DNA from: Candidatus Omnitrophota bacterium
Lineage (GTDB): Bacteria > Omnitrophota > Gorgyraeia > Aquiviventales > Aquiviventaceae
Reading direction: 5' to 3'
Length of the DNA: 64,000 bases
Assembly: GCA_016193195.1 (NCBI GenBank)
Contig: JACPSQ010000086.1
Span: forward strand, 17,299-81,298
Shown here: piece by piece, positions 37,310 to 62,632 of the stretch
Position numbering within the stretch: position 1 is the stretch's first letter
Layout of the letters: every line of letters starts with the position of its first letter
Translations under genes and position numbers: made by a program
The notes under the pieces: generated by a model
What the model saw: only the letters and a program-made list of their open reading frames with translations
Told to the model about the DNA's origin: nothing
The model's database searches: none

Positions 37310-37319
37310 AAGGAGACCC

Positions 37320-41022: not shown

Positions 41023-41529
41023 ATGGAAATGCGGGTGAGTGTCCGGGAAATAGGACGAGAGGACCGTGTCGCTCTCTGGGAATGGCGGCAGGATCCTATT
41101 ACTCGCGCACTGTTTCCATGCGACCCGGCGATCACGTACGAACGCCATCGGCGCTGGTTTGATTGCGCCATGACTGCGGGGGATGTGGTGTGGTGCGTAG
41201 GGCTTGTGGAGACACTGCGCATTGGCTGCGTGCGGTTTGATCAGATGAACCCAACCGAGTACCACGTCAGCCTGTTTCTGAAACCGCCGTATTGCGGCAA
41301 AGGGTATGGACGAGTCTTCCTGCAAGCAGCCATCGAATTCTTGAAGGCGCGACGTCCGATCCGGAAGCTCGTGGCGCAGGTGAAGAACGCGAATCCGGCA
41401 TCGGGAACGCTCTTTCAGGAAGCGGGTTTTTCTATCGCGAACGAAGGGCACCATCTCCGTTGTGAGTTGATGTGCGACGTGCCATCGTCGGCCATGCACG
41501 GAGTGACAGTGGCATCAGGAGAGGCGTGA
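41023..41529 (+). CDS. GNAT-family N-acetyltransferase (PseH-like)
   Basis: 168 aa. WEWRQDPITRALF resembles the PseH WRNDxxVR motif, and a GNAT core follows. Confidence 0.55.
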   Translation: MEMRVSVREIGREDRVALWEWRQDPITRALFPCDPAITYERHRRWFDCAMTAGDVVWCVGLVETLRIGCVRFDQMNPTEYHVSLFLKPPYCGKGYGRVFLQAAIEFLKARRPIRKLVAQVKNANPASGTLFQEAGFSIANEGHHLRCELMCDVPSSAMHGVTVASGEA

Positions 41530-41535
41530 CACCTC

Positions 41536-42204
41536 ATGACGATTCTCATCCTCGGTCCTCGCCAGCGCAACCAACCCCTGATCGAGTTTCTCACGCAGCG
41601 GCGGCATCAGGTCCAGGTCACCACCGAACCCGTGACGTTGGAATGGTTGAGAGAGCAACGGATCGACTTTATGATCAGCTTCGGATACGCCCCGATCCTC
41701 AAGCCCCCGATTACCACGGCATACCGACGGCGGATCATCAACGTCCATCCAGCGTATCTGCCGGAGGGGAGGGGCATCTACACGAATTTCTGGAGTTTTC
41801 TAGAAGGCCGGCCGAAAGGCGTCTCTCTTCATTTCATTGACGATGAGGGGATTGACAGTGGCGACATCATTGTCCGACGACTCCTTCCGCTGGGGAAGGA
41901 CGAGACCGTGAGGACGAGCCATGCGCTATTGGATCGTGCCGTCATCGAGCTCTTCTGTGAGGTGTGGGAGCAGATCGAACGGGGAACCTGCCAGGCGGTC
42001 AGCCAAGAGGAGTGCGACGGCATTCCTCGATACCGTAACCGCTGTCAGTCTGAACGGTTGATGGAGCTATTCCCGCAACGATGGGACACGCCGGTTTCAA
42101 CCGTGGAAGCGGTTGGCGCAGAGTTGTTTCTTGCCGACGCCTTTTGGCAGCGATACGACCGTGAACTCCAGACCGTCACGAGCAAGGCCGCGAGTTCAGT
42201 GTAG
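41536..42204 (+). CDS. Formyltransferase (PurN/Fmt N-domain-like sugar N-formyltransferase)
   Basis: INVHPAYLPEGRG...GVSLHFIDDEGIDSGDII matches the Formyl_trans_N N-x-H ... D core. Confidence 0.7.
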   Translation: MTILILGPRQRNQPLIEFLTQRRHQVQVTTEPVTLEWLREQRIDFMISFGYAPILKPPITTAYRRRIINVHPAYLPEGRGIYTNFWSFLEGRPKGVSLHFIDDEGIDSGDIIVRRLLPLGKDETVRTSHALLDRAVIELFCEVWEQIERGTCQAVSQEECDGIPRYRNRCQSERLMELFPQRWDTPVSTVEAVGAELFLADAFWQRYDRELQTVTSKAASSV

Positions 42205-42217
42205 GGGGGTGGACGTC

Positions 42218-43438
42218 ATGGCAACGCTCACGACCACGTCTCAGTTAGCCATTCATGGCGGGAAGCCGGTCCGTAAGAAGCCGATGCCGTGGCGCCAGGC
42301 GTTCGGTCCTGACGAGATCGCCTCGGTCATGTCAGCGATCGACTACTACCAGGCGAGGCGGGAAGACCCCCTCCATCAAGGGCATTTTGAACAGATGTTT
42401 TGTCAGGCCTTTGCCGAGTTCATGGGAGGCGGCTATACCGACGCTGTGGCAACGGGGACCGGCGCGATCTACGTCGCGTTGGCGGCGCTGGATCTGCCCA
42501 AAGGCAGCGAAGTCATCATTTCGCCGGTCACGGCGAGTAGCCCGTTGAGCTGTCTCATCCTGCAAGGATTCATCCCGGTTGTCGCCGACAGCCGGCCGGA
42601 CAGTTTCAATATGGGCGTCGAGCAATTCCTCGATCGGGTGACCACAAGGACGTCGGCGGTGCTGGCCGTCCACTTGGGGGGCGAGCCGCTCGAGATCGAC
42701 CGCCTGGCGGCTGAGGCATTCCGCCGCGGCATCAAAGTCCTGGAAGACTGCAGCCAAGCCCCCGGGGCGGTCTGGAAGGGCCGACGGGTCGGATCGTTTG
42801 GCGAGATTGCGGCCCTGTCAACGATGTATCGGAAGAACCTGATCTCGGGCAGCAGCGGCGGGCTTGTCTTCACGCGGGATCGCGAGCGCTACCAGCGGGC
42901 CCTGGCGCACGCGGATCACGGCAAGCCCGCCTGGCGCGAGGATCTCAACCTGAAGGATCCCAGGCATGCGCTCTTTCCCGCGCTGAATTTCAACACCGAT
43001 GAGCTCTCTTGCGCGATCGCCCTAGCGTCGCTTCGGCGCCTCCAGGAGACGATTGACAAGCGGCTGGCGTTTCTCGAGCGTTTCATCAGCGAGCTGCAGG
43101 CGATGTCGCGCGCCTGCCGGCCCTCTGTTTTTCACCGCGGGTTCTCTCCGTTTTTCTTTCCTGTCTTCGTTGAGGCGGACAAGCTCACCTGTTCCAAAGT
43201 CGAGTTCGCGCAAGCCGTTCAAGCGGAAGGCATCGGTCTCGATCCTGAGTATGGCTGCGTGGTCCGGTCTTGGACGTGGGCCCTGCCGTATCTCTCGGAC
43301 AACTTTGAAACCGTCAACGCCCTGTCCATGCGTGATCGGTCGTTCAATGTGTTTTTGAACGAGCAGTATGGGGACGAGGAGGTTCGAGATATCGTTGCTG
43401 CCATTGTGAAGGTGGAACGGCACTACGCCAAGGACTGA
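42218..43438 (+). CDS. DegT/DnrJ/EryC1/StrS-family PLP-dependent sugar aminotransferase
   Basis: The fold-type I sugar aminotransferase pattern, with the PLP-lysine region around SFGEIAALSTMYRKNL. Confidence 0.8.
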   Translation: MATLTTTSQLAIHGGKPVRKKPMPWRQAFGPDEIASVMSAIDYYQARREDPLHQGHFEQMFCQAFAEFMGGGYTDAVATGTGAIYVALAALDLPKGSEVIISPVTASSPLSCLILQGFIPVVADSRPDSFNMGVEQFLDRVTTRTSAVLAVHLGGEPLEIDRLAAEAFRRGIKVLEDCSQAPGAVWKGRRVGSFGEIAALSTMYRKNLISGSSGGLVFTRDRERYQRALAHADHGKPAWREDLNLKDPRHALFPALNFNTDELSCAIALASLRRLQETIDKRLAFLERFISELQAMSRACRPSVFHRGFSPFFFPVFVEADKLTCSKVEFAQAVQAEGIGLDPEYGCVVRSWTWALPYLSDNFETVNALSMRDRSFNVFLNEQYGDEEVRDIVAAIVKVERHYAKD

Positions 43439-43454
43439 GACGCAACCACCGGAC

Positions 43455-44846
43455 ATGATGATGAGAGCGAGGAGACGGTCGATCTATCGTGACGTGACGG
43501 TGAAAGTGCCATCGGATCCCACGGCCGCACGGCTCCCCCGCTGGCGGCGGGGTCTTCTGGCCCTCCGGGACGGCAGGCCGCGTGATCGGATGGTGCTGTT
43601 GATTGTGTATGTCATGAGACTCCTCACAGACGCGATCGTGAGTCTCGTGAAAACGCTCGTCTTCAACAAGGCGTTTCTGCGGGGCTGGATCTGGGTGTTG
43701 AAGGGGCGGGTGGAATTCTTCGGGTACAGCAGCTCGATCGGCGACATGGCGCTGTCGGTAGAGTACTATCTCCTCCGCAAGCGCGAGCTGAAGAGCCGCC
43801 TCATCAGCGTGTATTTAGTCAACAAACCATCCCTCGCCAATTACTACTTCGCGACATTGCAAGCCGACGCGTTTGGGTCGCGCCGCGTCCTCTTTGTCCT
43901 CAACCGATTCCTCTGCCGGGTGCTCGAGCCGCTCGAACACCCGTTGTTCTTTGCGCCGCAAACCCACATCGACTCCCGCTATCCGTCCGGGTACAGCGCG
44001 CTCATCTCCCGGTACAATGTTCATCTCGAGCGGCGGGTGCCGGCGTCAGACCGGTGCTTGGCGCGCGAATGGATGGAGACGCTAGGCCTCCCGCGAGACG
44101 CCAACTTTGTGACGGTCCATGTGCGGGAGGCAGGGTTTAAGGCGCACTTCCACACCGATGGGCACAACACGTTTCGAGACGCAGACATCGCCACGTACCT
44201 CCCCGCCATCCGGTACTTGATTCAGCAGGGGTTCTGGGTGATCCGGATGGGAGAATCAACCGTCAAACCGCTTCCCGCAATGGATCGCGCGATCGATTAT
44301 GCGAGGTCCCCCTTGAAGTCTGATTTCTTAGATGTCGTCTTGCTGGCAGAGTGTGAGTTGCTCATTGGGTCTGCCTCCGGGCTCGCCATGGTGGCGGATG
44401 TGTTCAATAAGCCGCAGCTCTTTGCCAACGGCATTGTGATCTATGGCTTGCCCTATCGGCCGTCGGCGTTGTGGATCCCCAAGCTCATCTGGAGCCATCC
44501 CGAACACCGATATCTCACGTTGGCTGAAATCATTGAACGGGGGATCGGAGAGTTTCACCGTACCCAGGATTATACGGCCGCAGGTCTTGAGGTCCACGAT
44601 AACTCGGCTGAGGAGATTCTTGAAGCCACGCAGGAACTGGACCAGCGCACTCGCGGTCAGTTCTCCTCTTCACCGGAGATTCGAGCGATCCAGCAAGCGG
44701 CGCAGCGGCTGCTTCCTCTGCATTATTTGTCTCACGGCACACAGGCTGTCCTGTGCGCAAGTTTCATCAGGCGGCATCCGGAGCTCTGCCCAGCTCCGCA
44801 GTCCTCCGCACCGCTGGCGATGCCGCTTGCGGTGGATTCCCGATGA
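43455..44846 (+). CDS. Hypothetical protein, possible GT-B-like glycosyltransferase
   Basis: 463 aa. The C-terminal GFWVIRMGE...LIGSASGLAMVADVFNKPQLFAN resembles GT-B C-terminal nucleotide-binding halves. No firm family assignment. Confidence 0.3.
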   Translation: MMMRARRRSIYRDVTVKVPSDPTAARLPRWRRGLLALRDGRPRDRMVLLIVYVMRLLTDAIVSLVKTLVFNKAFLRGWIWVLKGRVEFFGYSSSIGDMALSVEYYLLRKRELKSRLISVYLVNKPSLANYYFATLQADAFGSRRVLFVLNRFLCRVLEPLEHPLFFAPQTHIDSRYPSGYSALISRYNVHLERRVPASDRCLAREWMETLGLPRDANFVTVHVREAGFKAHFHTDGHNTFRDADIATYLPAIRYLIQQGFWVIRMGESTVKPLPAMDRAIDYARSPLKSDFLDVVLLAECELLIGSASGLAMVADVFNKPQLFANGIVIYGLPYRPSALWIPKLIWSHPEHRYLTLAEIIERGIGEFHRTQDYTAAGLEVHDNSAEEILEATQELDQRTRGQFSSSPEIRAIQQAAQRLLPLHYLSHGTQAVLCASFIRRHPELCPAPQSSAPLAMPLAVDSR

Positions 44847-46627
44847 AGATCTTCCGTGTACTCGTTGAAGTACTCTTTGACATGCTGGATGGAAGGCTGC
44901 GCTGGCTATTGGTTCGCGATACGCTGCTCGTGATCGTCGAGGGTGTCCTCGTCGCCGTCGCCCTGATGACGGTGGCCCCCGTCATCGATATGTTCGTGTC
45001 GGCGTCCCAGCAGAGTAGCCCACTCAGCACCCGCCTGACCGCATTCATGCAGATGCTGAGGTTGCCCGTGTCTCTGGAAGGGCTGCTGGTGGTGTTCCTC
45101 GCGATGCAAATCATCAAGAGCGGCTTCTCGGTCATGACACGGTATTGCATGCTGCAGACGCGCTATGCGACCCAAGAGTCTCTCATGATGGGGACCTTCA
45201 AGGATTTCGTCAGAGCGCAGTGGGCCTTCTTCAGCGAGCAACAGCAGGGCGTGCTCCGGAATACGCTGTCTCATGAAGTGCAGGCCGTGGCGACGGCTGT
45301 CTGGGTCACGATGCTCATGTGCGCGAACTTCACGCAGATCGTGTTGTATGTCTTGCTATCGATGTATGTCTCGTGGCAGGTGACGCTCATCAGCGTGGTG
45401 GCAGCCGCGGCATGCGCCGTGCCCTTTCTCTTATTCGGCAAACTCAGCTATCGTCTTGGACACATCAGCCTTGACGCACTCAATCGGGTGAGCTCCGTGA
45501 TCCATGAGAGTTTCGGAATGGCGAAACTCATTTTAGGGTTTTCGAGTCAGCGAAAGAGTGTTGAGAGGCTCGGGCGGTCGGTAGAAACTTACTGTCGATC
45601 GGCTCATCGCTCTCAAGCCCTTCAGTCGGCCACGCCGTATGTGTATGAGCCGTTGGGGGTCGTGGTGTTGGTGATTACAGCGCTTGTCGGTCGATCCTTC
45701 GAGGTTCCTCTTGCAGAGCTGGCGATTGTCTTCTGGGCACTGCGCAATTGCCTTCCACTGCTGAGTGGGACGATCGTCTTACGAAACGCGTTGCTCAACG
45801 CGATTCCCAGTTACGAGCAGGTCCGGCAGCTTCGACAACGGGCACAGGTGCTCCGCCAGCCTTCGGGGGCCCTTCCGTTCAAGGGCTTGGTGCGCGGCAT
45901 AACCTTTGAGCGAGTCTCCTTTGCCTACCCGGGGCATCCTCCAGTATTGAAGGAGATCACGATCACCATTCCGAAAGGCGGCATGGTGGCGTTGGCGGGG
46001 GAGTCCGGCGTCGGCAAGTCGACCCTGATTGATCTGTTGATGGGGTTCTATCGCCCGACAGCCGGCCAGATCACCATCGATGGCATCCCGCTCGAACAGC
46101 TGGATATTGCCTCGTATCGGGGACGAATCGGGTATGTCCCACAGGACAGCGCGTTGTTCAACGCCACCATCCTGGAGAACCTGCGCTGGGCCAAGGAGGA
46201 TGCGACGGACGAGGAGATTCGAGAAGCCTGTCGACAGGCCAACGCGGACGAGTTTATTGAGCGCTTCCCCAATGGCTACCACACCGAGGTGGGAGAGCGC
46301 GGCGTACGCCTCTCCGGAGGCCAGTGTCAACGCGTAGCCCTGGCCAGGGCGATCCTGCGCAAGCCGGAGCTCCTGATTTTGGACGAAGCGACCAGCTCAC
46401 TGGACACGCAGTCGGAGCGTCTGATTCAGCAGGCCATTGAGGCTGTGGCCAAGGAGACCACGGTGGTCGTGATCGCCCACCGGCTCTCCACCATCGTGAA
46501 CGCCGATATGATTTACGTCTTGCAGGACGGGTGGATCGTCGAGGAAGGGACCTATCAAACGTTGATGCAGCGGCACGGGCCTTTCAGCCGGATGACGCAA
46601 TTGCAGGTGCTCGAACCGGTGGCGTAA
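44843..46627 (+). CDS. ABC exporter, fused permease-ATPase (MsbA/PglK-type)
   Basis: Six N-terminal TM helices, Walker A GESGVGKST, signature LSGGQCQRVALARA, and Walker B LILDEATSSLD. Confidence 0.85.
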   Translation: MKIFRVLVEVLFDMLDGRLRWLLVRDTLLVIVEGVLVAVALMTVAPVIDMFVSASQQSSPLSTRLTAFMQMLRLPVSLEGLLVVFLAMQIIKSGFSVMTRYCMLQTRYATQESLMMGTFKDFVRAQWAFFSEQQQGVLRNTLSHEVQAVATAVWVTMLMCANFTQIVLYVLLSMYVSWQVTLISVVAAAACAVPFLLFGKLSYRLGHISLDALNRVSSVIHESFGMAKLILGFSSQRKSVERLGRSVETYCRSAHRSQALQSATPYVYEPLGVVVLVITALVGRSFEVPLAELAIVFWALRNCLPLLSGTIVLRNALLNAIPSYEQVRQLRQRAQVLRQPSGALPFKGLVRGITFERVSFAYPGHPPVLKEITITIPKGGMVALAGESGVGKSTLIDLLMGFYRPTAGQITIDGIPLEQLDIASYRGRIGYVPQDSALFNATILENLRWAKEDATDEEIREACRQANADEFIERFPNGYHTEVGERGVRLSGGQCQRVALARAILRKPELLILDEATSSLDTQSERLIQQAIEAVAKETTVVVIAHRLSTIVNADMIYVLQDGWIVEEGTYQTLMQRHGPFSRMTQLQVLEPVA

Positions 46628-47218
46628 ATGGACGAGCAGCGGTGGCTGGCGAGCTATTTCGAGCAGTACCGTCCCATGCTCTTTCAGGAGGCGATCCTTG
46701 AGCAGCTTGTGGAACTCAAGAGGCTCTTGATCGCCGCCCGGGAGGCGGGCAAGAAGGCGGTCTTCGCCGGCAACGGCGGCAGCGCCGCGATCGCCAGCCA
46801 CTGCGCGGTGGATTTCACGAAGAATGCCGGGATCCGTTGCGTCAATTTCAACGAGGCGGACCTGATCACCTGTTTCGCGAACGACTACGGCTACGAGCGC
46901 TGGTTGGAGAAAGCGCTGGGGTTCTATGCCGATCCCGGCGATGTCGTCATCCTCATCAGCTCAAGCGGGCAATCCAAGAACATGGTCAATGCCGCCCTCT
47001 ACGCGGCGGCGAGAAGACTTGCCGTCGTGACCTTCACTGGGTTTTCCTCGGATAACCCGCTGCGTGCATTGGGACGACTGAACTACTGGGTGGACAGCCG
47101 CGCCTACAACGTGGTTGAGATGACGCATCAGATTTGGTTGTTGGCGGTGTGCGATCTCATCATCGGGGCGGCGGAATATCCGGCCTCACGCGCCGAGTCC
47201 GGCGCGGTGGCGGTGTGA
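46628..47218 (+). CDS. SIS-domain sugar-phosphate isomerase (GmhA / PtmF-like)
   Basis: VFAGNGGSAAIASHCAVDF and ILISSSGQSKN are GmhA-family motifs. Confidence 0.75.
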   Translation: MDEQRWLASYFEQYRPMLFQEAILEQLVELKRLLIAAREAGKKAVFAGNGGSAAIASHCAVDFTKNAGIRCVNFNEADLITCFANDYGYERWLEKALGFYADPGDVVILISSSGQSKNMVNAALYAAARRLAVVTFTGFSSDNPLRALGRLNYWVDSRAYNVVEMTHQIWLLAVCDLIIGAAEYPASRAESGAVAV

Positions 47219-47228
47219 GCGGCGGACG

Positions 47229-47993
47229 ATGCTGAAGCTGGCGGTGGCGAAGGACGAGCTGGTGAGCTACGTGAGCCGGCAGCTCAATCACCTCTTCCCG
47301 GACGGCCGCGCGGCGCGCCGGGCGGCGCTGGCGCCGTCCGTCGAGGAAGCGCTGGCGCGCGTGGAGCGCGGGTTTTCCTCGATCCGGATGAAGTACTACA
47401 GCGATGGCGCGGGGGGAGCCCTGTTCGATCCTCTGCACACGGATCAGTACGCGGCGTTCTTGTATCTCCTGAGCCATGCGATCTACCGGGCGGGGGGTGA
47501 CCTGAGGGTGGCCGCCAAGGTGTACGCGCTCAACAAAGCGCTCCACGCGCTGGACGTCTACTACGAGGTCGAGCTGCCGGAGATTTTCGTCTTTCATCAT
47601 CCGGTGGGAACCGTCCTGGGCCGCGGGCGGTACGCCAACTACCTCTTCGTCCATCAGGGGTGCACGGTGGGCTCGGATATCAACGACCGCTACCCGGCCC
47701 TCGGGGAAGGGATCATCATGTATACGGGCAGCGCGGTCTTCGGGAACTGTGCCGTGGGGAGCAACTGCTGGCTCTCCGCCGGGACGCAGGTGCTGGAGAC
47801 CGATGTGCCCTCCGGCACGGTGGTCTTCGGACGATCGCCGGATCTGGTCATCAAGCCGACCCGGCGCGACGTGATCAAGGACGTGTTCGGCGCGCTTCCC
47901 GCAAGGCCGGACCGGCTGGAGAGCCGCGCGCGGCGCGGATCGGACGCCGGCGCACAACGGCGGGGCCTTCTCCTTCAAAGGACCCGGGCATGA
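47229..47993 (+). CDS. Hexapeptide-repeat (left-handed beta-helix) acyltransferase
   Basis: C-terminal hexapeptide repeats (GCTVGSD...GNCAVGSNCWL) with a CysE-like N-terminal helical domain. Confidence 0.6.
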   Translation: MLKLAVAKDELVSYVSRQLNHLFPDGRAARRAALAPSVEEALARVERGFSSIRMKYYSDGAGGALFDPLHTDQYAAFLYLLSHAIYRAGGDLRVAAKVYALNKALHALDVYYEVELPEIFVFHHPVGTVLGRGRYANYLFVHQGCTVGSDINDRYPALGEGIIMYTGSAVFGNCAVGSNCWLSAGTQVLETDVPSGTVVFGRSPDLVIKPTRRDVIKDVFGALPARPDRLESRARRGSDAGAQRRGLLLQRTRA

Positions 47994-51697: not shown

Positions 51698-51713
51698 AAG
51701 GAGGCAGGCGCGG

Positions 51714-52914: not shown

Positions 52915-52917
52915 GCC

Positions 52918-54522: not shown

Positions 54523-55718
54523 GAACGATTGGTGTCGTGACGGTCAACCGGTCGGATTACGGCATCTCCCTGCCGATCCTCCGGCGAATCCAGCAAGAAC
54601 CTGAACTGGCCCTCCACCTGATTGTCGCTGGGGCGCATCTGTCACCGGAGTTCGGGCTGACCGTCACGGCCATCGAGGCCGACGGGTTTCACATAGGCGA
54701 CCGGGTGGAGATGTTGGTGTCGTCAGACACGCCGGAGGGGATTGTGAAATCGATGGGCCTGGGCCTGATCGGGTTTGCGCAGAGCTTCACTCGCCGGCGG
54801 CCCGATATGGTGGTCGTCGTGGCGGATCGCTTTGAGATGCATGCCGCAGCCTTGGCCGCGCTGCCGCTGAAGATCCCCCTCGCGCATGTCCACGGGGGAG
54901 AGCTGAGCCAAGGCGCCATGGATGATGCGCTGCGGCATTCGATCACGAAACTCAGTCACCTCCATTTTGTCTCGACGAAAGAAGCGGCTCATCGCGTCCG
55001 GCAGATGGGGGAGGAGGCCTGGCGTGTGGTTGTGTCTGGCGCGCCCAGCCTTGATCATGTGCGCACGATCCCTCGCCTGTCAATCCAGGAATTGGAAGCC
55101 CGCGTTGGGATGCGTTTGGGGCAGGCGCCGCTGCTGGTGACCTATCATCCCGTGACGCTGGAGTATGAGCAAACCGAATGGCAGATCGGCGAACTGCTGG
55201 CGGCGCTGCAGGCGATCACGCGCCCCATGGTGTTCACGCTTCCCAACCCCGATACCAGCAGCCGAGTGATCCGTCGTATGATCGAGGCCTTTCTCGAGCG
55301 ACAGCCACACGCCAGGCTCGTGGAGAATTTTGGCACTCAGGGCTACTTGAGCATCATGGGCTATGCGGCCGCGATGGTCGGCAACTCCTCCAGCGGAATC
55401 ATCGAGGCACCATCCTTTGAGCTGCCGGTGGTCAACATCGGCACGAGGCAGGAGGGGCGGGTCAGGGCCGACAACGTGATTGATGTGAACTGCGCTCGGG
55501 CCGACATCGCTCAGGGCATCGTTCGAGCGCTTGCTCCGACATTCCGTGCGCGTCTGCGAGGGCTCCACAATCCTTACGGGCAGGGCGATGCGGCTGAGAT
55601 CATCGTTGGGCGGCTCAAGGACATTCCGTTGGATGCGCGGCTTATCCGAAAACGATTCATCGATCAGCCAGGCCAGGCGGATGCGGCCGACCCACAGGCA
55701 AGCCTCTATGCCCGTTGA
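54519..55718 (+). CDS. UDP-/GDP-N-acetylhexosamine 2-epimerase (hydrolysing), NeuC/LegG-like
   Basis: GDRFEMHAAALAALPLKIPLAHVHGGE, the Epimerase_2 core. ATGA-coupled. Confidence 0.8.
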   Translation: MRTIGVVTVNRSDYGISLPILRRIQQEPELALHLIVAGAHLSPEFGLTVTAIEADGFHIGDRVEMLVSSDTPEGIVKSMGLGLIGFAQSFTRRRPDMVVVVADRFEMHAAALAALPLKIPLAHVHGGELSQGAMDDALRHSITKLSHLHFVSTKEAAHRVRQMGEEAWRVVVSGAPSLDHVRTIPRLSIQELEARVGMRLGQAPLLVTYHPVTLEYEQTEWQIGELLAALQAITRPMVFTLPNPDTSSRVIRRMIEAFLERQPHARLVENFGTQGYLSIMGYAAAMVGNSSSGIIEAPSFELPVVNIGTRQEGRVRADNVIDVNCARADIAQGIVRALAPTFRARLRGLHNPYGQGDAAEIIVGRLKDIPLDARLIRKRFIDQPGQADAADPQASLYAR

Positions 55719-56403
55719 CGTGCCGACGTGCGTGATCCTTGGCGGGGGCGGCCATGCGCGCGTGCTCATCGATTGCTTGCGCGCGAGCGAGGTCGCGCTT
55801 CCTTATGCGGTGCTGGATGCGGATCGATCGTTGTGGGGACGTGAGGTGCTCGGCGTGCCGGTTCGGGGTGGAGATGGCTTGCTTCCCGACTTGCTGCGAG
55901 AGGGCATTCGGCATTTTGTCGTTGGGGTGGGCGGGATCGGCGACAACGAACCACGCCGCCGGTTATTTGAGCGGGCCCGGCGACAAGGGCTGACGCCGCT
56001 GCGCGTGTGCCATCCGTCAGCGATGTGTTCGCCGTCGGCGGTCATTGGGCAGGGCACCGTCGTCTTCCCGCACGCGGTGGTCAATACCGGCGCGCGCCTC
56101 GGAGTCAATGTCATCGTGAACACCTCGGCGGTCATCGAGCACGACTGCGTCGTCGGCGACCATGTTCATGTGGCGACCGGAGCTGTGCTCTGCAGCACGG
56201 TGCATGTGGGCGTGCTGGCTCACATCGGTGCAGGGGCTGTCGTGCGGCAATGTCTGACGATTGGTGAAGGAGCCGTGGTAGGCGCTGGCGCTGCGGTTGT
56301 CAGGGACGTTCCTGCTGGCGTCACGGTGTTTGGAGTTCCGGCTGAGCCCGCCGATTCGATCCTCGGTGGAGTGGAAGACCTGCGGCGGGAGAATCTGGGA
56401 TGA
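55708..56403 (+). CDS. NeuD/PglD-family sugar N/O-acetyltransferase (hexapeptide)
   Basis: An N-terminal ILGGGGHARVLID Rossmann-like motif plus C-terminal hexapeptide repeats. Confidence 0.7.
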   Translation: MPVDVPTCVILGGGGHARVLIDCLRASEVALPYAVLDADRSLWGREVLGVPVRGGDGLLPDLLREGIRHFVVGVGGIGDNEPRRRLFERARRQGLTPLRVCHPSAMCSPSAVIGQGTVVFPHAVVNTGARLGVNVIVNTSAVIEHDCVVGDHVHVATGAVLCSTVHVGVLAHIGAGAVVRQCLTIGEGAVVGAGAAVVRDVPAGVTVFGVPAEPADSILGGVEDLRRENLG

Positions 56404-57269
56404 GCATTCGCATCATTCCGCGGCTGGATATCAAGGGTCCAAACCTGGTCAAGGGCATCCACTTGGAGGGGCTGCGCGTCCTGGGAAAACCCGAGCGGTT
56501 CGCCAGGTCCTACTACGAGCAGGGGGCTGATGAGCTCCTCTACATGGATGTGGTGGCGAGTCTCTATGGGCGCAACAGCCTGCTGGAGATCGTGCGGCGA
56601 ACGGCGCAGGAGATCTTTATCCCGCTGACCGTGGGAGGCGGCTTGAGGAGCCTTGAGGACATCATGGCCGTCTTGCGGGCCGGCGCTGACAAGGTCTCGC
56701 TCAACACCGCCGCGGTTGGCAACCCTGAGTTCATCCGGACGGCCTCGCGGCGGTTCGGGTCTTCCACCATCGTGGTCTCGATCGAGGCGATCCGGCAACC
56801 CGACGGGCGCTACCAGGCCTACACGGACAACGGGCGCCAGACGACCGGGCTGGATGCGGTGCAGTGGGCCATCCAAGCCGCCGAGCTGGGGGCCGGAGAG
56901 CTCCTGGTGACGTCGATTGACCGCGAAGGCACCGGCAAGGGGTTCGATCTTGAGCTGACGCGGCGAATCGCCGAGTCGGTGCCGATTCCTGTCATCGCCT
57001 GCGGAGGGGCGGGAACCGTGGAACACGTGGTGGAGGTCATCCGCGAGGGCCGGGCGGATGCCGTGTGCCTGGCTTCGATGTTGCACTACGCCTTCATCCG
57101 TGACGACCCCGGCACGGACGATTTTTCTACGGAGGGCAACACGGAATACCTGAAGACGCGCGGCAAGCTCTCGAGGATCCACGAGGCGAAGTTGCCCCAG
57201 ATCAAGGCGGCGCTGCCGGCGCGGGGCGTCCCGTGCCGCCCGGCCGCGGAAGCCGCTGTCCATGTCTGA
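56400..57269 (+). CDS. Imidazole-glycerol-phosphate synthase cyclase-like subunit (HisF paralog, WbuZ/PseA-system)
   Basis: RIIPRLDIKGPNLVKG...VGGGL... is the HisF fold. Confidence 0.8.
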   Translation: MSIRIIPRLDIKGPNLVKGIHLEGLRVLGKPERFARSYYEQGADELLYMDVVASLYGRNSLLEIVRRTAQEIFIPLTVGGGLRSLEDIMAVLRAGADKVSLNTAAVGNPEFIRTASRRFGSSTIVVSIEAIRQPDGRYQAYTDNGRQTTGLDAVQWAIQAAELGAGELLVTSIDREGTGKGFDLELTRRIAESVPIPVIACGGAGTVEHVVEVIREGRADAVCLASMLHYAFIRDDPGTDDFSTEGNTEYLKTRGKLSRIHEAKLPQIKAALPARGVPCRPAAEAAVHV

Positions 57270-57951
57270 GACCAAGCCGACGCGTGTGGCGATCGTGGAC
57301 TACGGAATGGGGAATCTATTCAGCGTCCAGCAGGCGTGCGCGCAGGCGGGGCTGGCCGCCGCGGTCACGGCGGAGCCGCAGACGGTGCTGGAGACGGATG
57401 CCGTGATCCTGCCCGGCGTGGGTGCATTCGGCGACGCCATGGCCGAGCTGACCCGTCGGGATCTCGTCGTCCCGCTGCGGGACGCCGTCGCCTCCGGCAA
57501 GCCGCTCCTAGGTATCTGCCTCGGGATGCAACTGCTGATGAGCGAGAGTCACGAGTTCGGACGACACCGAGGCCTGAACATCATCGAAGGTGAGGTGGTG
57601 CGCCTCCCGGTCAGCGCGGAGGAGCCGCCGCGGAGGGTCAAGGTACCTGAAGTGGGCTGGAATCCGGTGTGGCCTGTTCGGGAGGACGCGTGGGTGGGGA
57701 GCTTGCTGGAGGGTATCCCGGCGGGTGCGTGCATGTATTTTGTCCACTCCTACTACGTTCGTCCTGTGGATGCTACGCTAATCCTCTCCACGACGACCTA
57801 TGGACCGATCACCTATTGCTCGAGTCTGCAGTTTGGAAACGTCTTCGGCTGTCAGTTTCACCCTGAGCGGAGCGGCCCGGCGGGGTTGAAGATCTACCGG
57901 AATCTGGCCACCAGGCTGGGACGGCTGTATGCGGAGGTTGAGCGGTCATGA
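57262..57951 (+). CDS. Glutamine amidotransferase subunit (HisH paralog, WbuY-like)
   Basis: VAIVDYGMGNLFS...LPGVGAFG...GICLGMQLL is a class I GATase. Confidence 0.8.
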   Translation: MSETKPTRVAIVDYGMGNLFSVQQACAQAGLAAAVTAEPQTVLETDAVILPGVGAFGDAMAELTRRDLVVPLRDAVASGKPLLGICLGMQLLMSESHEFGRHRGLNIIEGEVVRLPVSAEEPPRRVKVPEVGWNPVWPVREDAWVGSLLEGIPAGACMYFVHSYYVRPVDATLILSTTTYGPITYCSSLQFGNVFGCQFHPERSGPAGLKIYRNLATRLGRLYAEVERS

Positions 57952-59180
57952 GCCTTGCGACGGCAGCGGGGAGGGAGGAGGCGCTCGAGTCGAAGTACGG
58001 GCTGCCACGCCAGGTCGTGTTCTGCAGGCGATGTGTCATGTCGAATCAGCGTCCCTGTTCTTCAATCGAATTCCTCCACACGAACACCCACAAGCATCGG
58101 CACCTCCACATTGATGAAGCAGGCGTCTGCGATGCCTGCCGGATGGCTGGGCAAAAAGAGCAGATTGACTGGAACCAGCGCGAGCAGGAGCTGCGGCAAC
58201 TCCTCGACCAGCACCGCCGGAGCGATGGAGAGTACGACTGCCTCGTGCCGGGCAGCGGTGGGAAGGACAGCTGCTATGCGGCGCACATCTTGAAGTACCG
58301 CTACGGCATGCACCCACTGACCGTGACGTGGCCCCCAGGCCTCTACACCGACATCGGCTTGAAGAACTTCCATAGCTGGATCACCGTGGGGGCGTTCGAC
58401 AACGTGACCTTCAGGCCCAATGGCCGCGTTCATGCGCTGTTAACCCGCCTCTCGATTGAGAACCTTCTCAACCCGTTCCAGACGTTCGTCCTCGGCCAGA
58501 AGAACCTTGCGCCGAAGGTGACGATGCGCTACGGGATCAAGCTGATCTTCTACGGCGAGAACGAGGCGGAGTACGGCAACCCGATCGCAGACAACACCAG
58601 CTCCCTGCGTGATCGGGCCTACTACGCGTTCAACGATCTCTCGCGGGTCCACCTCGGGGGCGTGTCGGTGCCGGAGTTGCGGGAGCGCTACGGCCTGACG
58701 CTCAACGATCTGCTGCCCTATCTGCCGGCGGACCCTCTCGAGCTTGAGCGCTCAGGGATTGAGGTGCGGTACCTCGGCTACTACCTGAAGTGGACGCCGC
58801 AGGAAGCCTACTACTACGCCGTCGAGCACTGTGGCTTTGAGGCGAATCCCTTTCGGACGGAAGGCACGTACAGCAAGTACAACAGCCTTGACGACAAGGC
58901 GGACGGGCTCCACTACTACACGGCCTACATCAAGTTCGGGCTTGGACGGGCCAGCTCCGACGCCTCGCAGGAGATCCGCAACAAGCACCTCACGCGCGAG
59001 GAGGGGGTCGCCCTTGTGCGCCGGTTCGACGGGGAATTTCCGGAGCGCTATTTCCGCGAAGTAATGGAGTCTATTGGGATGGCGCCGGAGCAGTTCCTCG
59101 AGTTGTGCGACGAATTTCGCTCACCCCATCTGTGGCGGAAGGAGGGTAACACATGGCAGCTTCGCCACCAGGTCTCCTAG
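57948..59180 (+). CDS. N-acetyl sugar amidotransferase (WbuX/WbpG/PseA-like, PP-loop)
   Basis: An N-terminal Cys-rich region (CRRCVMSN...GVCDACR) and the PP-loop LVPGSGGKDSCYAAH. Confidence 0.8.
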   Translation: MSLATAAGREEALESKYGLPRQVVFCRRCVMSNQRPCSSIEFLHTNTHKHRHLHIDEAGVCDACRMAGQKEQIDWNQREQELRQLLDQHRRSDGEYDCLVPGSGGKDSCYAAHILKYRYGMHPLTVTWPPGLYTDIGLKNFHSWITVGAFDNVTFRPNGRVHALLTRLSIENLLNPFQTFVLGQKNLAPKVTMRYGIKLIFYGENEAEYGNPIADNTSSLRDRAYYAFNDLSRVHLGGVSVPELRERYGLTLNDLLPYLPADPLELERSGIEVRYLGYYLKWTPQEAYYYAVEHCGFEANPFRTEGTYSKYNSLDDKADGLHYYTAYIKFGLGRASSDASQEIRNKHLTREEGVALVRRFDGEFPERYFREVMESIGMAPEQFLELCDEFRSPHLWRKEGNTWQLRHQVS

Positions 59181-59204
59181 CAGGCTGCGGAAATACTCGG
59201 CTCA

Positions 59205-59313: not shown

Positions 59314-59341
59314 CAGCACCCTGCTAGACTAACACCGTGCG

Positions 59342-60430
59342 ATGCACACGGACCTGACGACGTTCTGCGTCAAGGCCACGGACCCGCTCCGGGCGGTCGT
59401 GGCCCAGATGGATCGCAATCGCCTGGGCATCGCCCTGGTCATCGATGAAGCGCGGCGGCTGGTTGGCGCGGTCACCGATGGGGACGTCCGCCGTGCGATC
59501 CTGAGCCGGTTGGAGTTCGAGCGGCCTGTTGAAACCCTGCTGGCCCGGAAGGCGGGAACCGCCCATGCGAAGCCGATCACAGCGCGCCAAGGTGCCGATC
59601 GGCAGACGCTGCTCAACGTGCTGCAACAGCATCGGATTCTGCACCTGCCCCTCGTGGATGAACAGCAGCACGTCGTAGGACTGGTGACGCTGGATGAGTT
59701 TGTGCCGGAGAAGGCGTTGCCGATTCAAGCGGTGGTGATGGCGGGGGGGAAGGGGAGCCGCCTGCATCCCCTGACCAACGAGTTGCCCAAGCCGATGTTG
59801 CGGGTGGGCGACCGGCCGGTGTTGGAGATCATCATCGGGCAGTTGCGCGAAGCCGGCATCCGCCAGGTCAAGGTGACGACGCACCATAAGACGGAGAAAA
59901 TCGCCGGGCATTTCGGTGACGGGAATCGTTTTGGGGTGGAGCTCTCCTATGTGGAAGAAGATCATCCCCTGGGCACGGTCGGCGGGCTGGGCCTCTTGGA
60001 GGTTCCAAAAGAGACGACCCTGGTGATCAACGGCGACATCCTGACACGAGTGGATTTCCGGGCGATGCTCCTCTACCACCGAGAGCACCAGGCCGATCTG
60101 ACCGTCGCCGTCCGTCAATACGATGTGAGGGTCCCCTACGGGGTCGTCGAATGTGAGGGGCCAAACGTGCGCAAGATCAGCGAGAAACCCGCCCTCATCT
60201 TGTTTATCAACGCGGGGGTCTATCTGCTTGAACCGGCTGTCTACCAGTATATCCCGAACGGCCAGCGCCTTGACATGACTGACCTGATCCAGCGGCTCCT
60301 CAGCGAGGGGCGAAGCGTCGTGAGCTTTCCGATCCGGGAGTATTGGCTTGATATCGGGCAACGTGAAGACTACGAGCAGGCGCAGGCCGACGTCAAGGAG
60401 TGGGCCGTGGCCAAGCAGGTGACAGGATGA
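59342..60430 (+). CDS. CBS-pair + sugar-1-phosphate nucleotidyltransferase (PtmE-like)
   Basis: N-terminal tandem CBS motifs. AVVMAGGKGSRLHPLTNELPKPML is the NTP_transferase G-loop. Confidence 0.75.
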   Translation: MHTDLTTFCVKATDPLRAVVAQMDRNRLGIALVIDEARRLVGAVTDGDVRRAILSRLEFERPVETLLARKAGTAHAKPITARQGADRQTLLNVLQQHRILHLPLVDEQQHVVGLVTLDEFVPEKALPIQAVVMAGGKGSRLHPLTNELPKPMLRVGDRPVLEIIIGQLREAGIRQVKVTTHHKTEKIAGHFGDGNRFGVELSYVEEDHPLGTVGGLGLLEVPKETTLVINGDILTRVDFRAMLLYHREHQADLTVAVRQYDVRVPYGVVECEGPNVRKISEKPALILFINAGVYLLEPAVYQYIPNGQRLDMTDLIQRLLSEGRSVVSFPIREYWLDIGQREDYEQAQADVKEWAVAKQVTG

Positions 60431-61413
60431 GTCTGTGGACAGGCAAGGCGGTGCTGGTTACGGGAGCGGGTGGATTCATCGGCAGCCACCTGGCCGAGCG
60501 GCTGGTCGAGCTAGGCGCCTACGTCAAGGCCCTGGTCCGCTATCGCTCCAACGGTTCATGGGGTTGGCTGGATCAGATACCGGCGAGAGAGGCAGTTGAG
60601 GTTATTGCAGGCGACCTCTGCGATCGAGAGAGCGTCAGGCAAGCCCTGAAAGGCGCGCAGGTAGTCTTCCACCTCGCCGCGTTCATCGCCATCCCGTATT
60701 CGTACCAGGTCCCCGAGACCTTCGTCCTGGTTAACATCGGGGGGACGCTGAACCTCCTGCAGGCCGCGCGCGACTACGGGGTGGAGCGATTCATCCACAC
60801 CTCCACCAGCGAGGTGTACGGGACCGCCCGCAACGTGCCGATTGACGAATCCCACCCGCTCCAGGCCCAATCACCCTATGCGGCGTCCAAGATCGCCACG
60901 GACAAACTGGTCGAATCCTTCCATCTGTCCTTCGATCTGCCCACCGTGACGGTGCGGCCGTTTAATACGTTTGGCCCCCGACAGTCGGCTCGTGCGATTG
61001 TGCCGACGATCATCACGCAGTGCTTGACCGACACGACCGTGCGCGTCGGCAACCTGACGCCGACCCGTGATATGAATTACGTGAGCGACATCGTCCAGGG
61101 GTTTGTGCGAGCGGCCGAATGTCCCGAAGCGATTGGCCGGACCTTCAACCTCGGCTCAGGGCGCGAAACCAGCATGGCTGATCTCGTGGGCTTGATCGCC
61201 GCCCTGATGGGCAAGTCGCCGGCGATGGCGGTGGAAGACAGCCGGATCCGTCCGGCCCACAGTGAAGTGGAGCGGCTGGTCGCCGACAGCACCGCCGCTC
61301 GAGCGGTCCTGGGATGGGAACCGATCGTGTCGCTTGAAGAAGGGATCCGACTCACGTTCGAGTGGATTCAGGAGCATCTGGATGCCTACCGTCCGGGCAT
61401 GTACGTCCTCTGA
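60427..61413 (+). CDS. NAD-dependent nucleotide-sugar epimerase/dehydratase (LegB/PseB-like candidate)
   Basis: VLVTGAGGFIGSH, HTSTSEVYG and YAASKIATD (YxxxK). ATGA-coupled. Confidence 0.8.
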   Translation: MSLWTGKAVLVTGAGGFIGSHLAERLVELGAYVKALVRYRSNGSWGWLDQIPAREAVEVIAGDLCDRESVRQALKGAQVVFHLAAFIAIPYSYQVPETFVLVNIGGTLNLLQAARDYGVERFIHTSTSEVYGTARNVPIDESHPLQAQSPYAASKIATDKLVESFHLSFDLPTVTVRPFNTFGPRQSARAIVPTIITQCLTDTTVRVGNLTPTRDMNYVSDIVQGFVRAAECPEAIGRTFNLGSGRETSMADLVGLIAALMGKSPAMAVEDSRIRPAHSEVERLVADSTAARAVLGWEPIVSLEEGIRLTFEWIQEHLDAYRPGMYVL

Positions 61414-62632
61414 GCCTCGGGAGGGTACGAAGGGGCGGTGGATTCCGCTGAGCGAGCCGCATCTCGCCGGCAACGAGTGGAGGTATCTCAAGGAGTGCCT
61501 GGACAGCGGCTGGATCTCATCGGCCGGGCCGTTTGTGGAGCGGTTTGAGCAAGCGTTTACCACATACATCAGGGACGGCCGACCGGGAACCCCTGCCGTC
61601 GGAGTCGTCAACGGCACCGCAGGTTTGCATGTAGCACTGCGCGCCGCGCTGGTACAGCCTGATGATGAAGTGCTGGTGCCAACGCTGACCTTTATTGCGC
61701 CGGTCAACGCGATCCGTTATTGCCAGGCGCATCCGGTCTTCATCGATGCGGATCCGCTGACGTGGCAGATTGACGTGAAGCAGGTGGAAGCATTTCTCGA
61801 ACGCGAGTGCGAGGTGAGGCCGGATGTTCCGGGCCCGGGCGTATCGACCAAGACATGTTGGAACAAGCGGACAAAGCGGTGCGTGCGGGCGATCATCCCG
61901 GTACACCTGCTGGGTTTGGCTTGCGATATGGAGCCGCTGATGGCGCTGGCCAGGCGATACCATTTGCGCGTTGTTGAGGACGCCTGCGAAGCGATCGGAG
62001 TGCGTTATGGTCCTTTTCATGTTGGCACACGGGGCCACCTGGGGGTCTTTAGCTTTAACGGGAATAAGACGCTGACGTGCGGCGGCGGGGGGATGGTGGT
62101 GGCGCGCAAGCCATACGCCGACTATGTGCGATACCTGACGACCCAGGCGCGGGATGGTTCGCGGGAATATTATCATCAGGAAATTGGCTACAACTATCGG
62201 CTGACGAACCTGCACGCGGCGATTGGCTTGGCGCAACTGGAGCAGGCGGAGCGGTTGCTGGCGCGCAAACGAGCCATCGCCGCGGCGTACGAACAGGCCC
62301 TGCGCGACGTCGACGGGATCACGCTGATGCCGGCGCCTCCGCACACCGAGCCTGGCTATTGGCTGTACACCATCCTCCTGAGGGAAGGCACGACGGTGGC
62401 TCAGCGCAACGCCGTGCTGGATCGGTTGGCCGCGGAAGATATCGAGGCGCGGCCGTTGTGGCAACCAATCCACACGCAGCCGCCCTACCAGGGCTGCCAA
62501 CGCGCCGGCTCGATGACGGTGGCCAACGACGTGTACGAGCGGGCCGTGAGCCTCCCAAGCAGCGTCGGATTGAACATGGTGGAGCTTGAGCGGTGCGTTG
62601 AGGTCGTTCGCCGGCTTCTTGCAGGAGCATGA
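61382..62632 (+). CDS. DegT/DnrJ/EryC1-family sugar aminotransferase
   Basis: WIPLSEPHLAGNEWRYLKECLDSGWISS is the canonical DegT N-terminus. The only in-frame start upstream is ATG 61382, which overlaps the previous gene by 32 nt. Confidence 0.8.
   Translation: MPTVRACTSSEPREGTKGRWIPLSEPHLAGNEWRYLKECLDSGWISSAGPFVERFEQAFTTYIRDGRPGTPAVGVVNGTAGLHVALRAALVQPDDEVLVPTLTFIAPVNAIRYCQAHPVFIDADPLTWQIDVKQVEAFLERECEVRPDVPGPGVSTKTCWNKRTKRCVRAIIPVHLLGLACDMEPLMALARRYHLRVVEDACEAIGVRYGPFHVGTRGHLGVFSFNGNKTLTCGGGGMVVARKPYADYVRYLTTQARDGSREYYHQEIGYNYRLTNLHAAIGLAQLEQAERLLARKRAIAAAYEQALRDVDGITLMPAPPHTEPGYWLYTILLREGTTVAQRNAVLDRLAAEDIEARPLWQPIHTQPPYQGCQRAGSMTVANDVYERAVSLPSSVGLNMVELERCVEVVRRLLAGA

Follow-up and report, generated by a model that had tools for sequence, protein, structure and literature searches.

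Gene composition of the locus

We analyzed a 64,000-nucleotide stretch of DNA (hereafter, the window) from the metagenome-assembled genome (MAG) of a Candidatus Omnitrophota bacterium (GenBank assembly GCA_016193195.1, contig JACPSQ010000086.1, positions 17,299 to 81,298), which contains, at positions 41023-62632, a block of genes for the predicted biosynthesis of a nonulosonic acid of the legionaminic acid (Leg) type and, embedded in this block, a cassette of three genes that ends with a gene for a B12-binding-domain radical S-adenosylmethionine (SAM) enzyme. The block consists of 23 co-directional, tightly packed genes and lies in a single-strand glycan island of ~58 kb, an uninterrupted run of plus-strand genes that extends from ~6.0 kb to the end of the window; the G+C content across the window is 54-71%. 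Start and stop codons overlap by 4 bases at many junctions of the block, and a scan of the 44-64 kb region for promoters and terminators detected no terminator-like or other signal exceeding the expectation from shuffled sequences. The open reading frames (ORFs) used here agree with the gene calls made independently in metagenomes on identical contigs, and the radical SAM protein of the window recurs, with an identical sequence, on short contigs that one study obtained in five sequencing runs.

Protein families were assigned using NCBIfam models with curated cut-offs, Pfam and the best relatives in the PDB. A first-pass annotation had listed in this block a complete set of nonulosonate genes with acetamidino, N-acetyl and N-formyl options; all the genes listed proved to be intact plus-strand ORFs, with starts at, or within ~30 bases of, the positions assigned there. 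What this inventory overlooked are six genes inside the block, namely those for a TIGR04372 glycosyltransferase, an ABC exporter, a hexapeptide acyltransferase, a Gfo/Idh/MocA oxidoreductase, a protein of 67 amino acids (aa) and a DUF115/MptE-like protein. The clustering of so many nonulosonate genes far exceeds chance.

A conserved three-gene cassette in nonulosonate loci

The B12-binding radical SAM gene in the middle of the module is not isolated but is the third gene of a conserved cassette. The first gene (51714-51917; this and all other genes of the block are on the plus strand) encodes the 67-aa protein and is preceded by the sequence AAGGAGG located 9 nucleotides 5' of the ATG. The second gene (51889-52914), whose start overlaps the 3' end of the first, encodes the 341-aa DUF115/MptE-like protein (PF01973, 52 bits), which we denote mini-Maf, and the third one (52918-54522) encodes the radical SAM enzyme (PF02310, 58 bits; PF04055, 51 bits). 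Three unrelated contigs on which homologs of this enzyme are encoded contain the same upstream pair, an ORF of 65-70 aa and an MptE-like gene for ~340 aa, among genes for NeuB, NeuC and cytidine monophosphate (CMP)-synthetase.

We surveyed 80 loci, on contigs taken at one genome per species from 213 confirmed matches, using tblastn and hidden Markov models to score the neighborhoods. Mini-Maf is encoded directly 5' of the radical SAM gene, on the same strand, in 70 of the 82 loci with enough upstream DNA; of the other 12, 10 have the mini-Maf gene no more than 3 kb upstream (80 of the 82 altogether). A homolog of the small protein was identified in 70 loci out of 79. Every locus with at least 3 kb of sequence on both flanks (54 of 54) includes a homolog of NeuB, NeuC or CMP-synthetase; in 21 of these 54 loci the CMP-synthetase gene is the immediate neighbor of the cassette, and in 37 it is found within 3 kb. 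The taxa in which the cassette was detected, as named, represent about ten phyla and include Omnitrophota, Planctomycetota, Rokubacteria/Methylomirabilota, Nitrospirota, Chloroflexota, Acidobacteriota, Elusimicrobia, a bacterium of the candidate phyla radiation (CPR), Myxococcales and several proteobacterial classes; overall, homologs of the cassette proteins comprise more than a thousand protein clusters from many phyla. No fusions were detected among the listed homologs of the radical SAM enzyme (444-547 aa) and mini-Maf (295-359 aa) or among the small-protein representatives. The cassette matches no entry in the curated family libraries, and no description of it was found in the literature searched for B12-dependent or radical SAM enzymes or DUF115 proteins in nonulosonate synthesis; likewise, the literature searched yielded nothing on nonulosonic acids in Omnitrophota.

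Several loci deviate from the common layout or the common taxonomic range. In six loci of the Rokubacteria/Methylomirabilota type (L020, L026, L028, L045, L048 and L056), ~1.9 kb separate mini-Maf from the radical SAM gene, and in L026 the gap holds a gene (7989-9992) whose 667-aa product has a NodB polysaccharide-deacetylase domain at its C-terminus. One locus, L067, is binned as the archaeon Nitrosotalea; its layout and small-protein sequence are nearly those of L023, a Limnocylindria contig that belongs to the same data series, which suggests possible mis-binning and makes the presence of the cassette in archaea doubtful.

Sequence and structural features of the cassette proteins

The radical SAM enzyme shows 57-80% identity across the cassette taxa. 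Twenty-two homologs share without exception the cysteines of its CX3CX2C motif (CSxxCRxC; C212, C216 and C219) and, beyond the motif, C307, H314, C318, H322, H328 and C345. The latter residues belong to a confidently modeled insertion (residues 305-345), and this pattern of extra cysteines and histidines may reflect an additional metal site, which would be unusual for class B radical SAM methylases. The structural model of the enzyme, with a predicted local distance difference test score (pLDDT) of 83.5, matches the folds of TsrM (E 3e-20), AprD4 (2e-19), OxsB, MgmA, TokK and CysS, with E-values in the range from 1e-13 to 3e-20. At the sequence level, profile matches to PDB entries were weak, and no curated NCBIfam model came near its cut-off, the best ones being ApyD (85 bits versus 750) and TIGR03975 (69 bits). 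Along with the class B radical SAM methyltransferases TsrM, TokK, CysS and MgmA, the enzyme possesses an N-terminal B12-binding domain and a CX3CX2C core, but it is at most 18% identical to these proteins, and AprD4, which like OxsB is not a methylase, matches equally well. Class B enzymes offer precedents for the relevant chemistry, namely methylation by Fom3 of a substrate linked to CMP and C-methylation of a sugar by GenK. From the position of the radical SAM gene, the first-pass annotation had suggested that the product is a C-methylated nonulosonic acid; this is plausible, and what strengthens it is a correlation, namely the association with ten-carbon acids that is discussed below. We also considered PtmH as an explanation for the radical SAM gene and rejected it because PtmH (Cj1325) is a conventional N-methyltransferase of CMP-Leg5Am7Ac rather than a radical SAM enzyme.

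The AlphaFold2 model of mini-Maf (pLDDT 92, predicted TM-score 0.92) showed the best Foldseek match to the Maf glycosyltransferase of Magnetospirillum magneticum AMB-1 (5MU5; E 5e-8, 299 aligned columns), followed by the archaeal MptE kinase of M. jannaschii (8SD5; Foldseek E 4e-5, phmmer E 0.016), with a weak match to a sialyltransferase lower down. The TM-scores (TMq) were 0.50 for Maf and 0.38 for MptE; normalized to the target, the score for 5MU5 was 0.28. Mini-Maf and Maf thus have the DUF115/MptE-like core fold in common, but they share 16% identity and differ in size (341 versus 632 aa): mini-Maf is about half the size of Maf, which implies that the flanking regions of Maf are missing. 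It does not display the full-length Maf architecture (~600 aa, with a flanked core), and the 120 homologs listed are all 295-359 aa long. Unlike Maf, mini-Maf is invariably paired with the B12-binding radical SAM enzyme and a 60-70-aa protein and occurs in lineages without expected flagellin glycosylation. Mini-Maf most likely binds the CMP-nonulosonate.

The small protein represents a stand-alone family, without matches in Pfam or significant matches in NCBIfam. It contains a conserved N-terminal motif, LKGN[YF], a variable, charged linker and a conserved C-terminal motif, FE.xAL..LGGSI[AC]FV.KK.

The predicted core pathway is of the legionaminic acid type

The genes on either side of the cassette encode enzymes of a predicted nonulosonate pathway. 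These are a NeuB/LegI nonulosonate synthase (50660-51697; TIGR03569, 460 bits with a cut-off of 400), a NeuC/LegG hydrolyzing nucleoside diphosphate (NDP)-sugar 2-epimerase (54519-55718; TIGR03568, 440 bits, cut-off 236) and a LegH-like, 240-aa N-acetyltransferase of the NeuD/PglD family (55681-56403; TIGR03570, 211 bits, cut-off 161). Three genes at the 3' end of the block would account for the early steps. The first of these (59342-60430), identified from its domain architecture and model matches, encodes a PtmE-like fusion of a CBS pair with a sugar-1-phosphate nucleotidyltransferase, in which the nucleotidyltransferase region best fits the model for mannose-1-phosphate guanylyltransferase (164 bits) and the CBS region matches the CBS parts of KpsF and IMPDH. 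It is followed by genes for a LegB-type NAD-dependent 4,6-dehydratase (60427-61413; TIGR04180, 427 bits, below the cut-off of 475, with the next family at 175) and a LegC-family aminotransferase (61382-62632; TIGR04181, 428 bits, cut-off 420). Further upstream in the block, a GmhA-like SIS-domain sugar-phosphate isomerase (46628-47218; GmhA-type models at 54-64 bits, below their cut-offs; Pfam SIS_2 on an identical gene call) is a candidate PtmF analog, and a second DegT-family aminotransferase (42218-43438) scores 122 bits with PseC and 83 bits with LegC, far below both cut-offs.

A comparison of Leg and pseudaminic acid (Pse) orthologs with curated models bears out the earlier Leg-type reading of these genes. 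The Leg model outscores the Pse model for LegB (427 versus 50 bits for PseB), LegC (428 versus 230 bits for PseC) and the synthase at 50660 (460 bits for NeuB_NnaB versus 308 for PseI, which is under its own cut-off of 340), and the curated models detected neither PseG nor PseB in the window, the epimerase being instead of the NeuC type. The best PDB relative of the synthase is SpsE of Bacillus subtilis (1VLI, 221 bits), ahead of NeuB of Neisseria meningitidis (185 bits) and pseudaminic acid synthase (176 bits); the sps genes, including that for SpsE, have been cited as producers of CMP-legionaminic acid (PMC13317340). The pathway is therefore supported at the sequence level as Leg-type, outscoring the Pse-type at each scorable step. 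The case that the first-pass annotation had named as contradicting it, in which the synthase, epimerase and CMP-synthetase would fall in the N-acetylneuraminic acid (Neu5Ac) clade and the remaining genes would belong to unrelated pathways, does not hold because the genes for LegB, LegC and the PtmE-like enzyme are contiguous at 59.3-62.6 kb.

The closest characterized parallel is the CMP-Leg pathway of Campylobacter jejuni and Campylobacter coli, the enzyme roles in which we take as given in PMC13317340. The families in common are LegB, LegC, the NeuD-, NeuC- and NeuB-type enzymes and CMP-synthetase, as well as the CBS-nucleotidyltransferase, the SIS protein, a short-chain dehydrogenase/reductase (SDR) and the WbuX-family amidotransferase; this comparison was made through family models. 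In contrast to Campylobacter, the window lacks a PtmH-type N-methyltransferase, a full-length Maf and flagellin genes, and it adds a Gfo/Idh/MocA oxidoreductase, a PseJ-like formyltransferase, HisH and HisF in cis, and the cassette of the small protein, mini-Maf and the radical SAM enzyme.

Predicted tailoring and export genes

Immediately upstream of the NeuB gene, the genes for a Gfo/Idh/MocA oxidoreductase (47990-49045; Pfam GFO_IDH_MocA and C-terminal domains), a LegF/ElaB-like CMP-nonulosonate synthetase (49045-49809) and a classical PtmA/ElaC-like SDR (49806-50651; SDR models at 165-169 bits) form a compact trio. The synthetase belongs to the CTP_transf_3 family and scores 137 bits with TIGR03584 (PseF; cut-off 206); the NCBIfam scan returned no match to a Leg-specific model. 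Its best PDB match is 6IFD (118 bits), and that of the SDR is 6UH2 (E 4.5e-36). In the KL49 locus of Acinetobacter baumannii, ElaA, a Gfo-family protein, oxidizes C8 of CMP-Leg5,7Ac2, and ElaC, an SDR, reduces the product to the 8-epimer; 6IFD and 6UH2 are the search models that were used in solving the structures of ElaB and ElaC (PMC13656337). The trio of the window (47990-50651) consists of the same families in the same order as ElaA-ElaB-ElaC, with the Gfo protein in the position of ElaA, a likeness that is drawn from families, gene order and common PDB models; the Gfo protein of the window matches PDB entries weakly (E 1e-10). Hence the SDR that had been described as PtmA-like is indeed an SDR, but it sits in a trio with the elaA-elaB-elaC arrangement and, given the gene order and the best PDB matches, may be an ElaC-like reductase. 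By analogy with the Acinetobacter enzymes, the Gfo protein and the SDR would act at C8 of the CMP-sugar.

Downstream of the NeuD gene, three overlapping genes encode a HisF/WbuZ-like cyclase subunit (56400-57269; HisF model 276 bits, cut-off 295; WbuZ model 271 bits, cut-off 300), a HisH-like glutaminase subunit in the WbuY role (57262-57951; TIGR01855, 199 bits, cut-off 105) and a WbuX-family N-acetyl sugar amidotransferase similar to PtmG and PseA (57948-59180; TIGR03573, 338 bits, cut-off 203). The WbuXYZ-type trio predicted in the first-pass annotation is thus present: as in the WbuX/WbuY/WbuZ and PseA/PtmG systems, a protein of the WbuX subfamily is encoded next to HisH- and HisF-like subunits, and the WbuX and HisH components score above their cut-offs, whereas the HisF-like subunit falls just under those for both WbuZ and HisF.

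The 5' end of the block contains genes for a GNAT N-acetyltransferase that is weakly PseH-like (41023-41529; Acetyltransf_3, 55.7 bits; TIGR03585 PseH, 43 bits, below the cut-off) and a PseJ-like, 222-aa sugar N-formyltransferase (41536-42204). The best PDB relative of the latter is PseJ (6CI2; E 6.6e-32), an N-formyltransferase of a nonulosonate pathway, to which it aligns over residues 3-189, well ahead of PurN, Fmt and deoxythymidine diphosphate (dTDP)-sugar formyltransferases; the family-level matches to PurN and Fmt are weak. The N-formyl option envisaged for this locus is accordingly supported by sequence comparison at the family level. In contrast to the PseJ system, the formyltransferase gene is found in a Leg-type rather than a Pse-type context, 13 kb from the LegB and LegC genes, next to those for the second DegT protein and the GNAT. 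For Candidatus Kuenenia, both a Leg-like cluster with a formyltransferase and formylation of CMP-sugars at the nucleotide-sugar level have been reported (SugarBase preprint).

The remaining genes of this part of the block encode a putative glycosyltransferase of the TIGR04372 family (43455-44846; 203 bits, cut-off 45; no Pfam match), an ABC exporter with fused permease and ATPase similar to MsbA, HepA and PglK (44843-46627; HepA family 396, MsbA 330 and PglK 238 bits, all under the equivalog cut-offs), the ATG of which at 44843 overlaps the upstream stop codon (ATGA), and a CysE-like hexapeptide-repeat acyltransferase (47229-47993; TIGR01172 47 bits, EpsC 44 bits; no Pfam match). No flagellin, Wzx/Wzy or S-layer genes were detected in the window.

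A potential link to ten-carbon ulosonic acids

In Magnetospirillum gryphiswaldense, several CMP-linked α-keto acids with an extended C10 backbone have been reported; the parent ions have m/z values of 679.198, 693.214 and 707.230, and the 1,2-diamino-4,5-methylenedioxybenzene (DMB) derivatives yield a C10 marker fragment at m/z 311.10 instead of 297.09 (bioRxiv 10.64898/2026.04.20.719630); an earlier survey had noted possible 10-carbon ulosonic acids in the same bacterium (PMC8157484). Neither paper proposed biosynthetic genes for the C10 acids (bioRxiv 10.64898/2026.04.20.719630; PMC8157484). A search with a homolog from magnetotactic Rhodospirillaceae recovered the radical SAM enzyme of M. 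gryphiswaldense, which is 56% identical to that of the window. The respective locus (L089) of this genetically tractable bacterium (strain MSR-1) encodes a LegC-family aminotransferase, NeuC, NeuB, NeuD, CMP-synthetase, a 57-aa ORF (8771-8944), mini-Maf (8952-9983) and the B12-binding radical SAM enzyme (10001-11560); here, the cassette is located immediately 3' of the CMP-synthetase gene, at the end of a Leg-type operon, a layout that would be expected of a radical SAM enzyme that extends a Leg-type sugar by a carbon during or after its activation with CMP. We tentatively propose that the cassette C-methylates the side chain of a CMP-activated Leg-type sugar, giving rise to C10 ulosonic acids and thus supplying the enzyme system that so far has been missing, a scenario that we consider possible rather than probable.

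The same locus contains other genes of note. Directly 3' of the cassette (11577-14416 of L089), a 577-aa protein without a significant Pfam or NCBIfam family and a SPASM-domain radical SAM protein are encoded, and further on lies a Pse-like set, with PseC-like and PseG-like genes, a second NeuB/PseI and a second CMP-transferase. A SPASM radical SAM gene is found near the cassette also in locus L008.

Proposed pathway and alternative explanations

Taken together, the genes at 41023-62632 likely encode a CMP-nonulosonate pathway of the Leg type with several tailoring modules, among them the cassette, which would act on the CMP-sugar. The pathway would start with the formation of an NDP-linked, probably guanosine diphosphate (GDP)-linked, GlcN(Ac) by the PtmE-like CBS-nucleotidyltransferase, followed by dehydration at C4/C6 by LegB, amination of C4 by LegC, and either N-acetylation by the NeuD/LegH-type transferase or N-formylation by the PseJ-like enzyme. 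NeuC/LegG would then remove the nucleotide and epimerize C2, NeuB/LegI would condense the sugar with phosphoenolpyruvate, and the CMP-synthetase would activate the product. Tailoring is predicted to involve conversion of an acetamido to an acetamidino group by WbuX with HisH and HisF, ElaA/ElaC-like oxidation and reduction at C8 by the Gfo/Idh/MocA protein and the SDR, and binding of the CMP-sugar by mini-Maf, which together with the small protein could present the substrate to the radical SAM enzyme. Our best guess is that this enzyme transfers a methyl group to C9 or C8, an unactivated position in the side chain, which would bring the ulosonic acid to ten carbons; use and export of the product would then fall to the TIGR04372 glycosyltransferase and the ABC exporter.

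Several observations weigh against this scheme or parts of it. The core route is shown at the level of families, and its chemistry is modeled on the Campylobacter and Acinetobacter pathways from sequence data; LegB scores 427 bits, under the cut-off of 475, and the CMP-synthetase and WbuZ/HisF are also under their curated cut-offs. The product of the PtmE-like enzyme, probably GDP-linked by analogy, could instead be linked to UDP, and no equivalents of PgmL or GlmU were identified in the region. Among the 39 full cassette loci, a Gfo homolog is encoded in 13 and an SDR homolog in 10, so that these enzymes are not obligatory partners of the cassette. With regard to the cassette itself, AprD4, a cobalamin-independent diol dehydratase that does not methylate, is the match of the radical SAM enzyme with the highest TM-score (TMq 0.61), and the favored model leaves the role of the 67-aa protein unexplained. 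The link to C10 acids is a correlation in one organism, and the C10 chemistry of M. gryphiswaldense might instead be due to the genes located downstream of the cassette.

Two alternative explanations call into question the identity of the sugar or of mini-Maf. It could be argued that NeuB, NeuC and the CMP-synthetase make Neu5Ac, or that the set is Pse-type, with the other genes derived from unrelated sugar pathways, given that TIGR03569 and TIGR03568 are named after Neu5Ac enzymes, that PseF is the only NCBIfam match of the CMP-synthetase with an E-value better than 1e-20, and that the GNAT, DegT and formyltransferase proteins show weak Pse-like affinities. This seems very unlikely in view of the scores of the LegB model (427 bits versus 50 for PseB) and the LegC model (428 versus 230 for PseC), the lack of PseG and PseB in the window, the PtmE-like gene that adjoins those for LegB and LegC, and the proximity of NeuB to SpsE, a product of the sps genes cited for CMP-Leg; furthermore, the many 4-base overlaps along the block and the lack of above-chance terminators at 44-64 kb run counter to a mixture of unrelated pathways. 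The other alternative stems from the fact that MptE and a B12-dependent radical SAM methylase both work in methanopterin biosynthesis: the DUF115 protein might be a true MptE-type pyrophosphokinase, with the radical SAM enzyme methylating a pterin-like or other non-sugar substrate. The similarity of the protein to MptE of M. jannaschii in both sequence and fold (8SD5; phmmer E 0.016, Foldseek E 4e-5) is compatible with such a role, but Maf fits the fold better (E 5e-8; TMq 0.50 versus 0.38), all loci with sufficient flanks are nonulosonate loci, and the loci that were inspected showed no pterin genes, which makes a kinase of this kind hardly credible.

The two other alternatives accept the nonulosonate context and differ in the reaction of the radical SAM enzyme or its substrate. 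Instead of methylating, the enzyme could act on the nonulosonate side chain by radical chemistry that dehydrates, deoxygenates or rearranges it, similarly to AprD4 or OxsB, with the adjacent reductases finishing the reaction. AprD4, a radical SAM 1,2-diol dehydratase, tops the TM-scores (0.61, E 2e-19), OxsB is among the high fold matches, and dehydrogenases/reductases, Gfo and SDR, adjoin the cassette in the window. Nevertheless, the Pfam B12-binding domain is well over threshold at 58 bits, B12 methylases make up most of the other fold neighbors, Leg-type sugars already are 9-deoxy, most cassette loci have no Gfo and SDR, and a dehydration leaves the C10 backbone unexplained; we consider a non-methylating enzyme unlikely. 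Alternatively, the cassette could be a unit akin to those for peptides that are made on ribosomes and modified after translation (RiPPs), with the radical SAM enzyme methylating the 67-aa protein as its substrate and mini-Maf attaching a nonulosonate to it, the sugar genes supplying the donor. As in many RiPP loci, a small conserved ORF directly precedes the B12-binding radical SAM gene, and the best, albeit weak, NCBIfam matches of the enzyme are RiPP enzymes (ApyD, 85 bits; TIGR03975, 69 bits); moreover, the small protein combines a strictly conserved N-terminal LKGN[YF] with a variable charged linker, mini-Maf resembles a protein-glycosylating transferase, and ABC exporters are encoded near the cassette in some loci. 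However, both ends of the small protein are conserved, unlike the pattern of a leader with a variable core, and the overlap of its ORF with the start of mini-Maf suggests a co-translated subunit. Furthermore, no protease was seen in the inspected loci, an ABC exporter is encoded in only 10 of the 39 full loci, and the C10 sugars of M. gryphiswaldense were seen as CMP-activated free metabolites. On balance, a RiPP-like unit appears improbable.

The Leg-type core, the acetamidino trio, the formyltransferase and the Ela-like trio are systems of known kinds, and their occurrence in Omnitrophota is unsurprising; the novelty lies in the cassette, which is widespread, strictly organized and linked to nonulosonates. 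Nonulosonic acids decorate flagella, capsules, lipopolysaccharides and S-layers, shaping immune and phage recognition, and their known diversity stems from stereochemistry and N- and O-substituents on a nine-carbon skeleton. The cassette is a concrete, genetically testable candidate for the chemistry of C10 ulosonic acids. Should C-methylation by the cassette prove true, producers of C10 relatives of sialic acids would, in addition to M. gryphiswaldense, be found in about ten phyla, the Omnitrophota bacterium studied here being one of them; even if no methylation is involved, the cassette would represent a new kind of tailoring step in the synthesis of sialic acid-like sugars.

Other genes of the island

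The plus-strand part of the island upstream of the block (6001-41019) is dense with unusual sugar-building enzymes. It encodes HldE-like kinase/nucleotidyltransferases (at 11606 and 28701), a transaldolase (7243), a HAD phosphatase, a UDP-galactopyranose-mutase-like protein (36185), split transketolase pairs (23089/23895 and 33458/34309), an E1 alpha/beta pair (13276/14262) and many SDRs, epimerases and methyltransferases. This gene composition suggests that the island is responsible for the synthesis of additional chain-extended or branched sugars. Except for a MarR-like regulator and generic epimerases, the upstream genes (6-41 kb) show essentially no co-occurrence with the cassette elsewhere, indicating that the island is not conserved as one unit. 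Two of these genes (18307-20346 and 25381-27207) encode further B12-binding radical SAM proteins that lie outside the cassette and do not co-occur with it elsewhere. The possibility that the three B12-binding radical SAM proteins of the window are paralogs was rejected, given that the protein encoded at 52918 shows 22% identity with that at 25381 and none with that at 18307. Close to the 5' end of the block (38687-41019), a SPASM radical SAM gene is located beside a gene for an FkbM methyltransferase, and the region 36990-38601 encodes proteins of the 'sporadic carbohydrate cluster', a 2-oxoglutarate (2OG)-Fe(II) oxygenase (TIGR04324, 295 bits) and a LIC12192-family protein (TIGR04323, 138 bits), both above the cut-offs. 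The ORF at 10012 and a 333-aa ORF directly 3' of the LegC gene (62709-63710) have no significant family in Pfam or NCBIfam, and no homolog of the latter was found in any cassette locus surveyed.

The first gene of the plus-strand run (6001-6693) encodes a MarR-like winged-helix protein. Of 84 cassette loci, 25 encode homologs of this protein, with identities of up to 44%, and the locus of M. gryphiswaldense contains a gene for an HTH_24 protein; on this evidence, the MarR-like protein may be a dedicated regulator. Divergently oriented genes on the minus strand (2768-5836) encode a glycosyltransferase of family 4 (GT4), a formyltransferase-domain protein and a polysaccharide deacetylase; in Candidatus Kuenenia, a deacetylase and formyltransferase pair has been linked to free-amine and N-formyl nonulosonates (SugarBase preprint).

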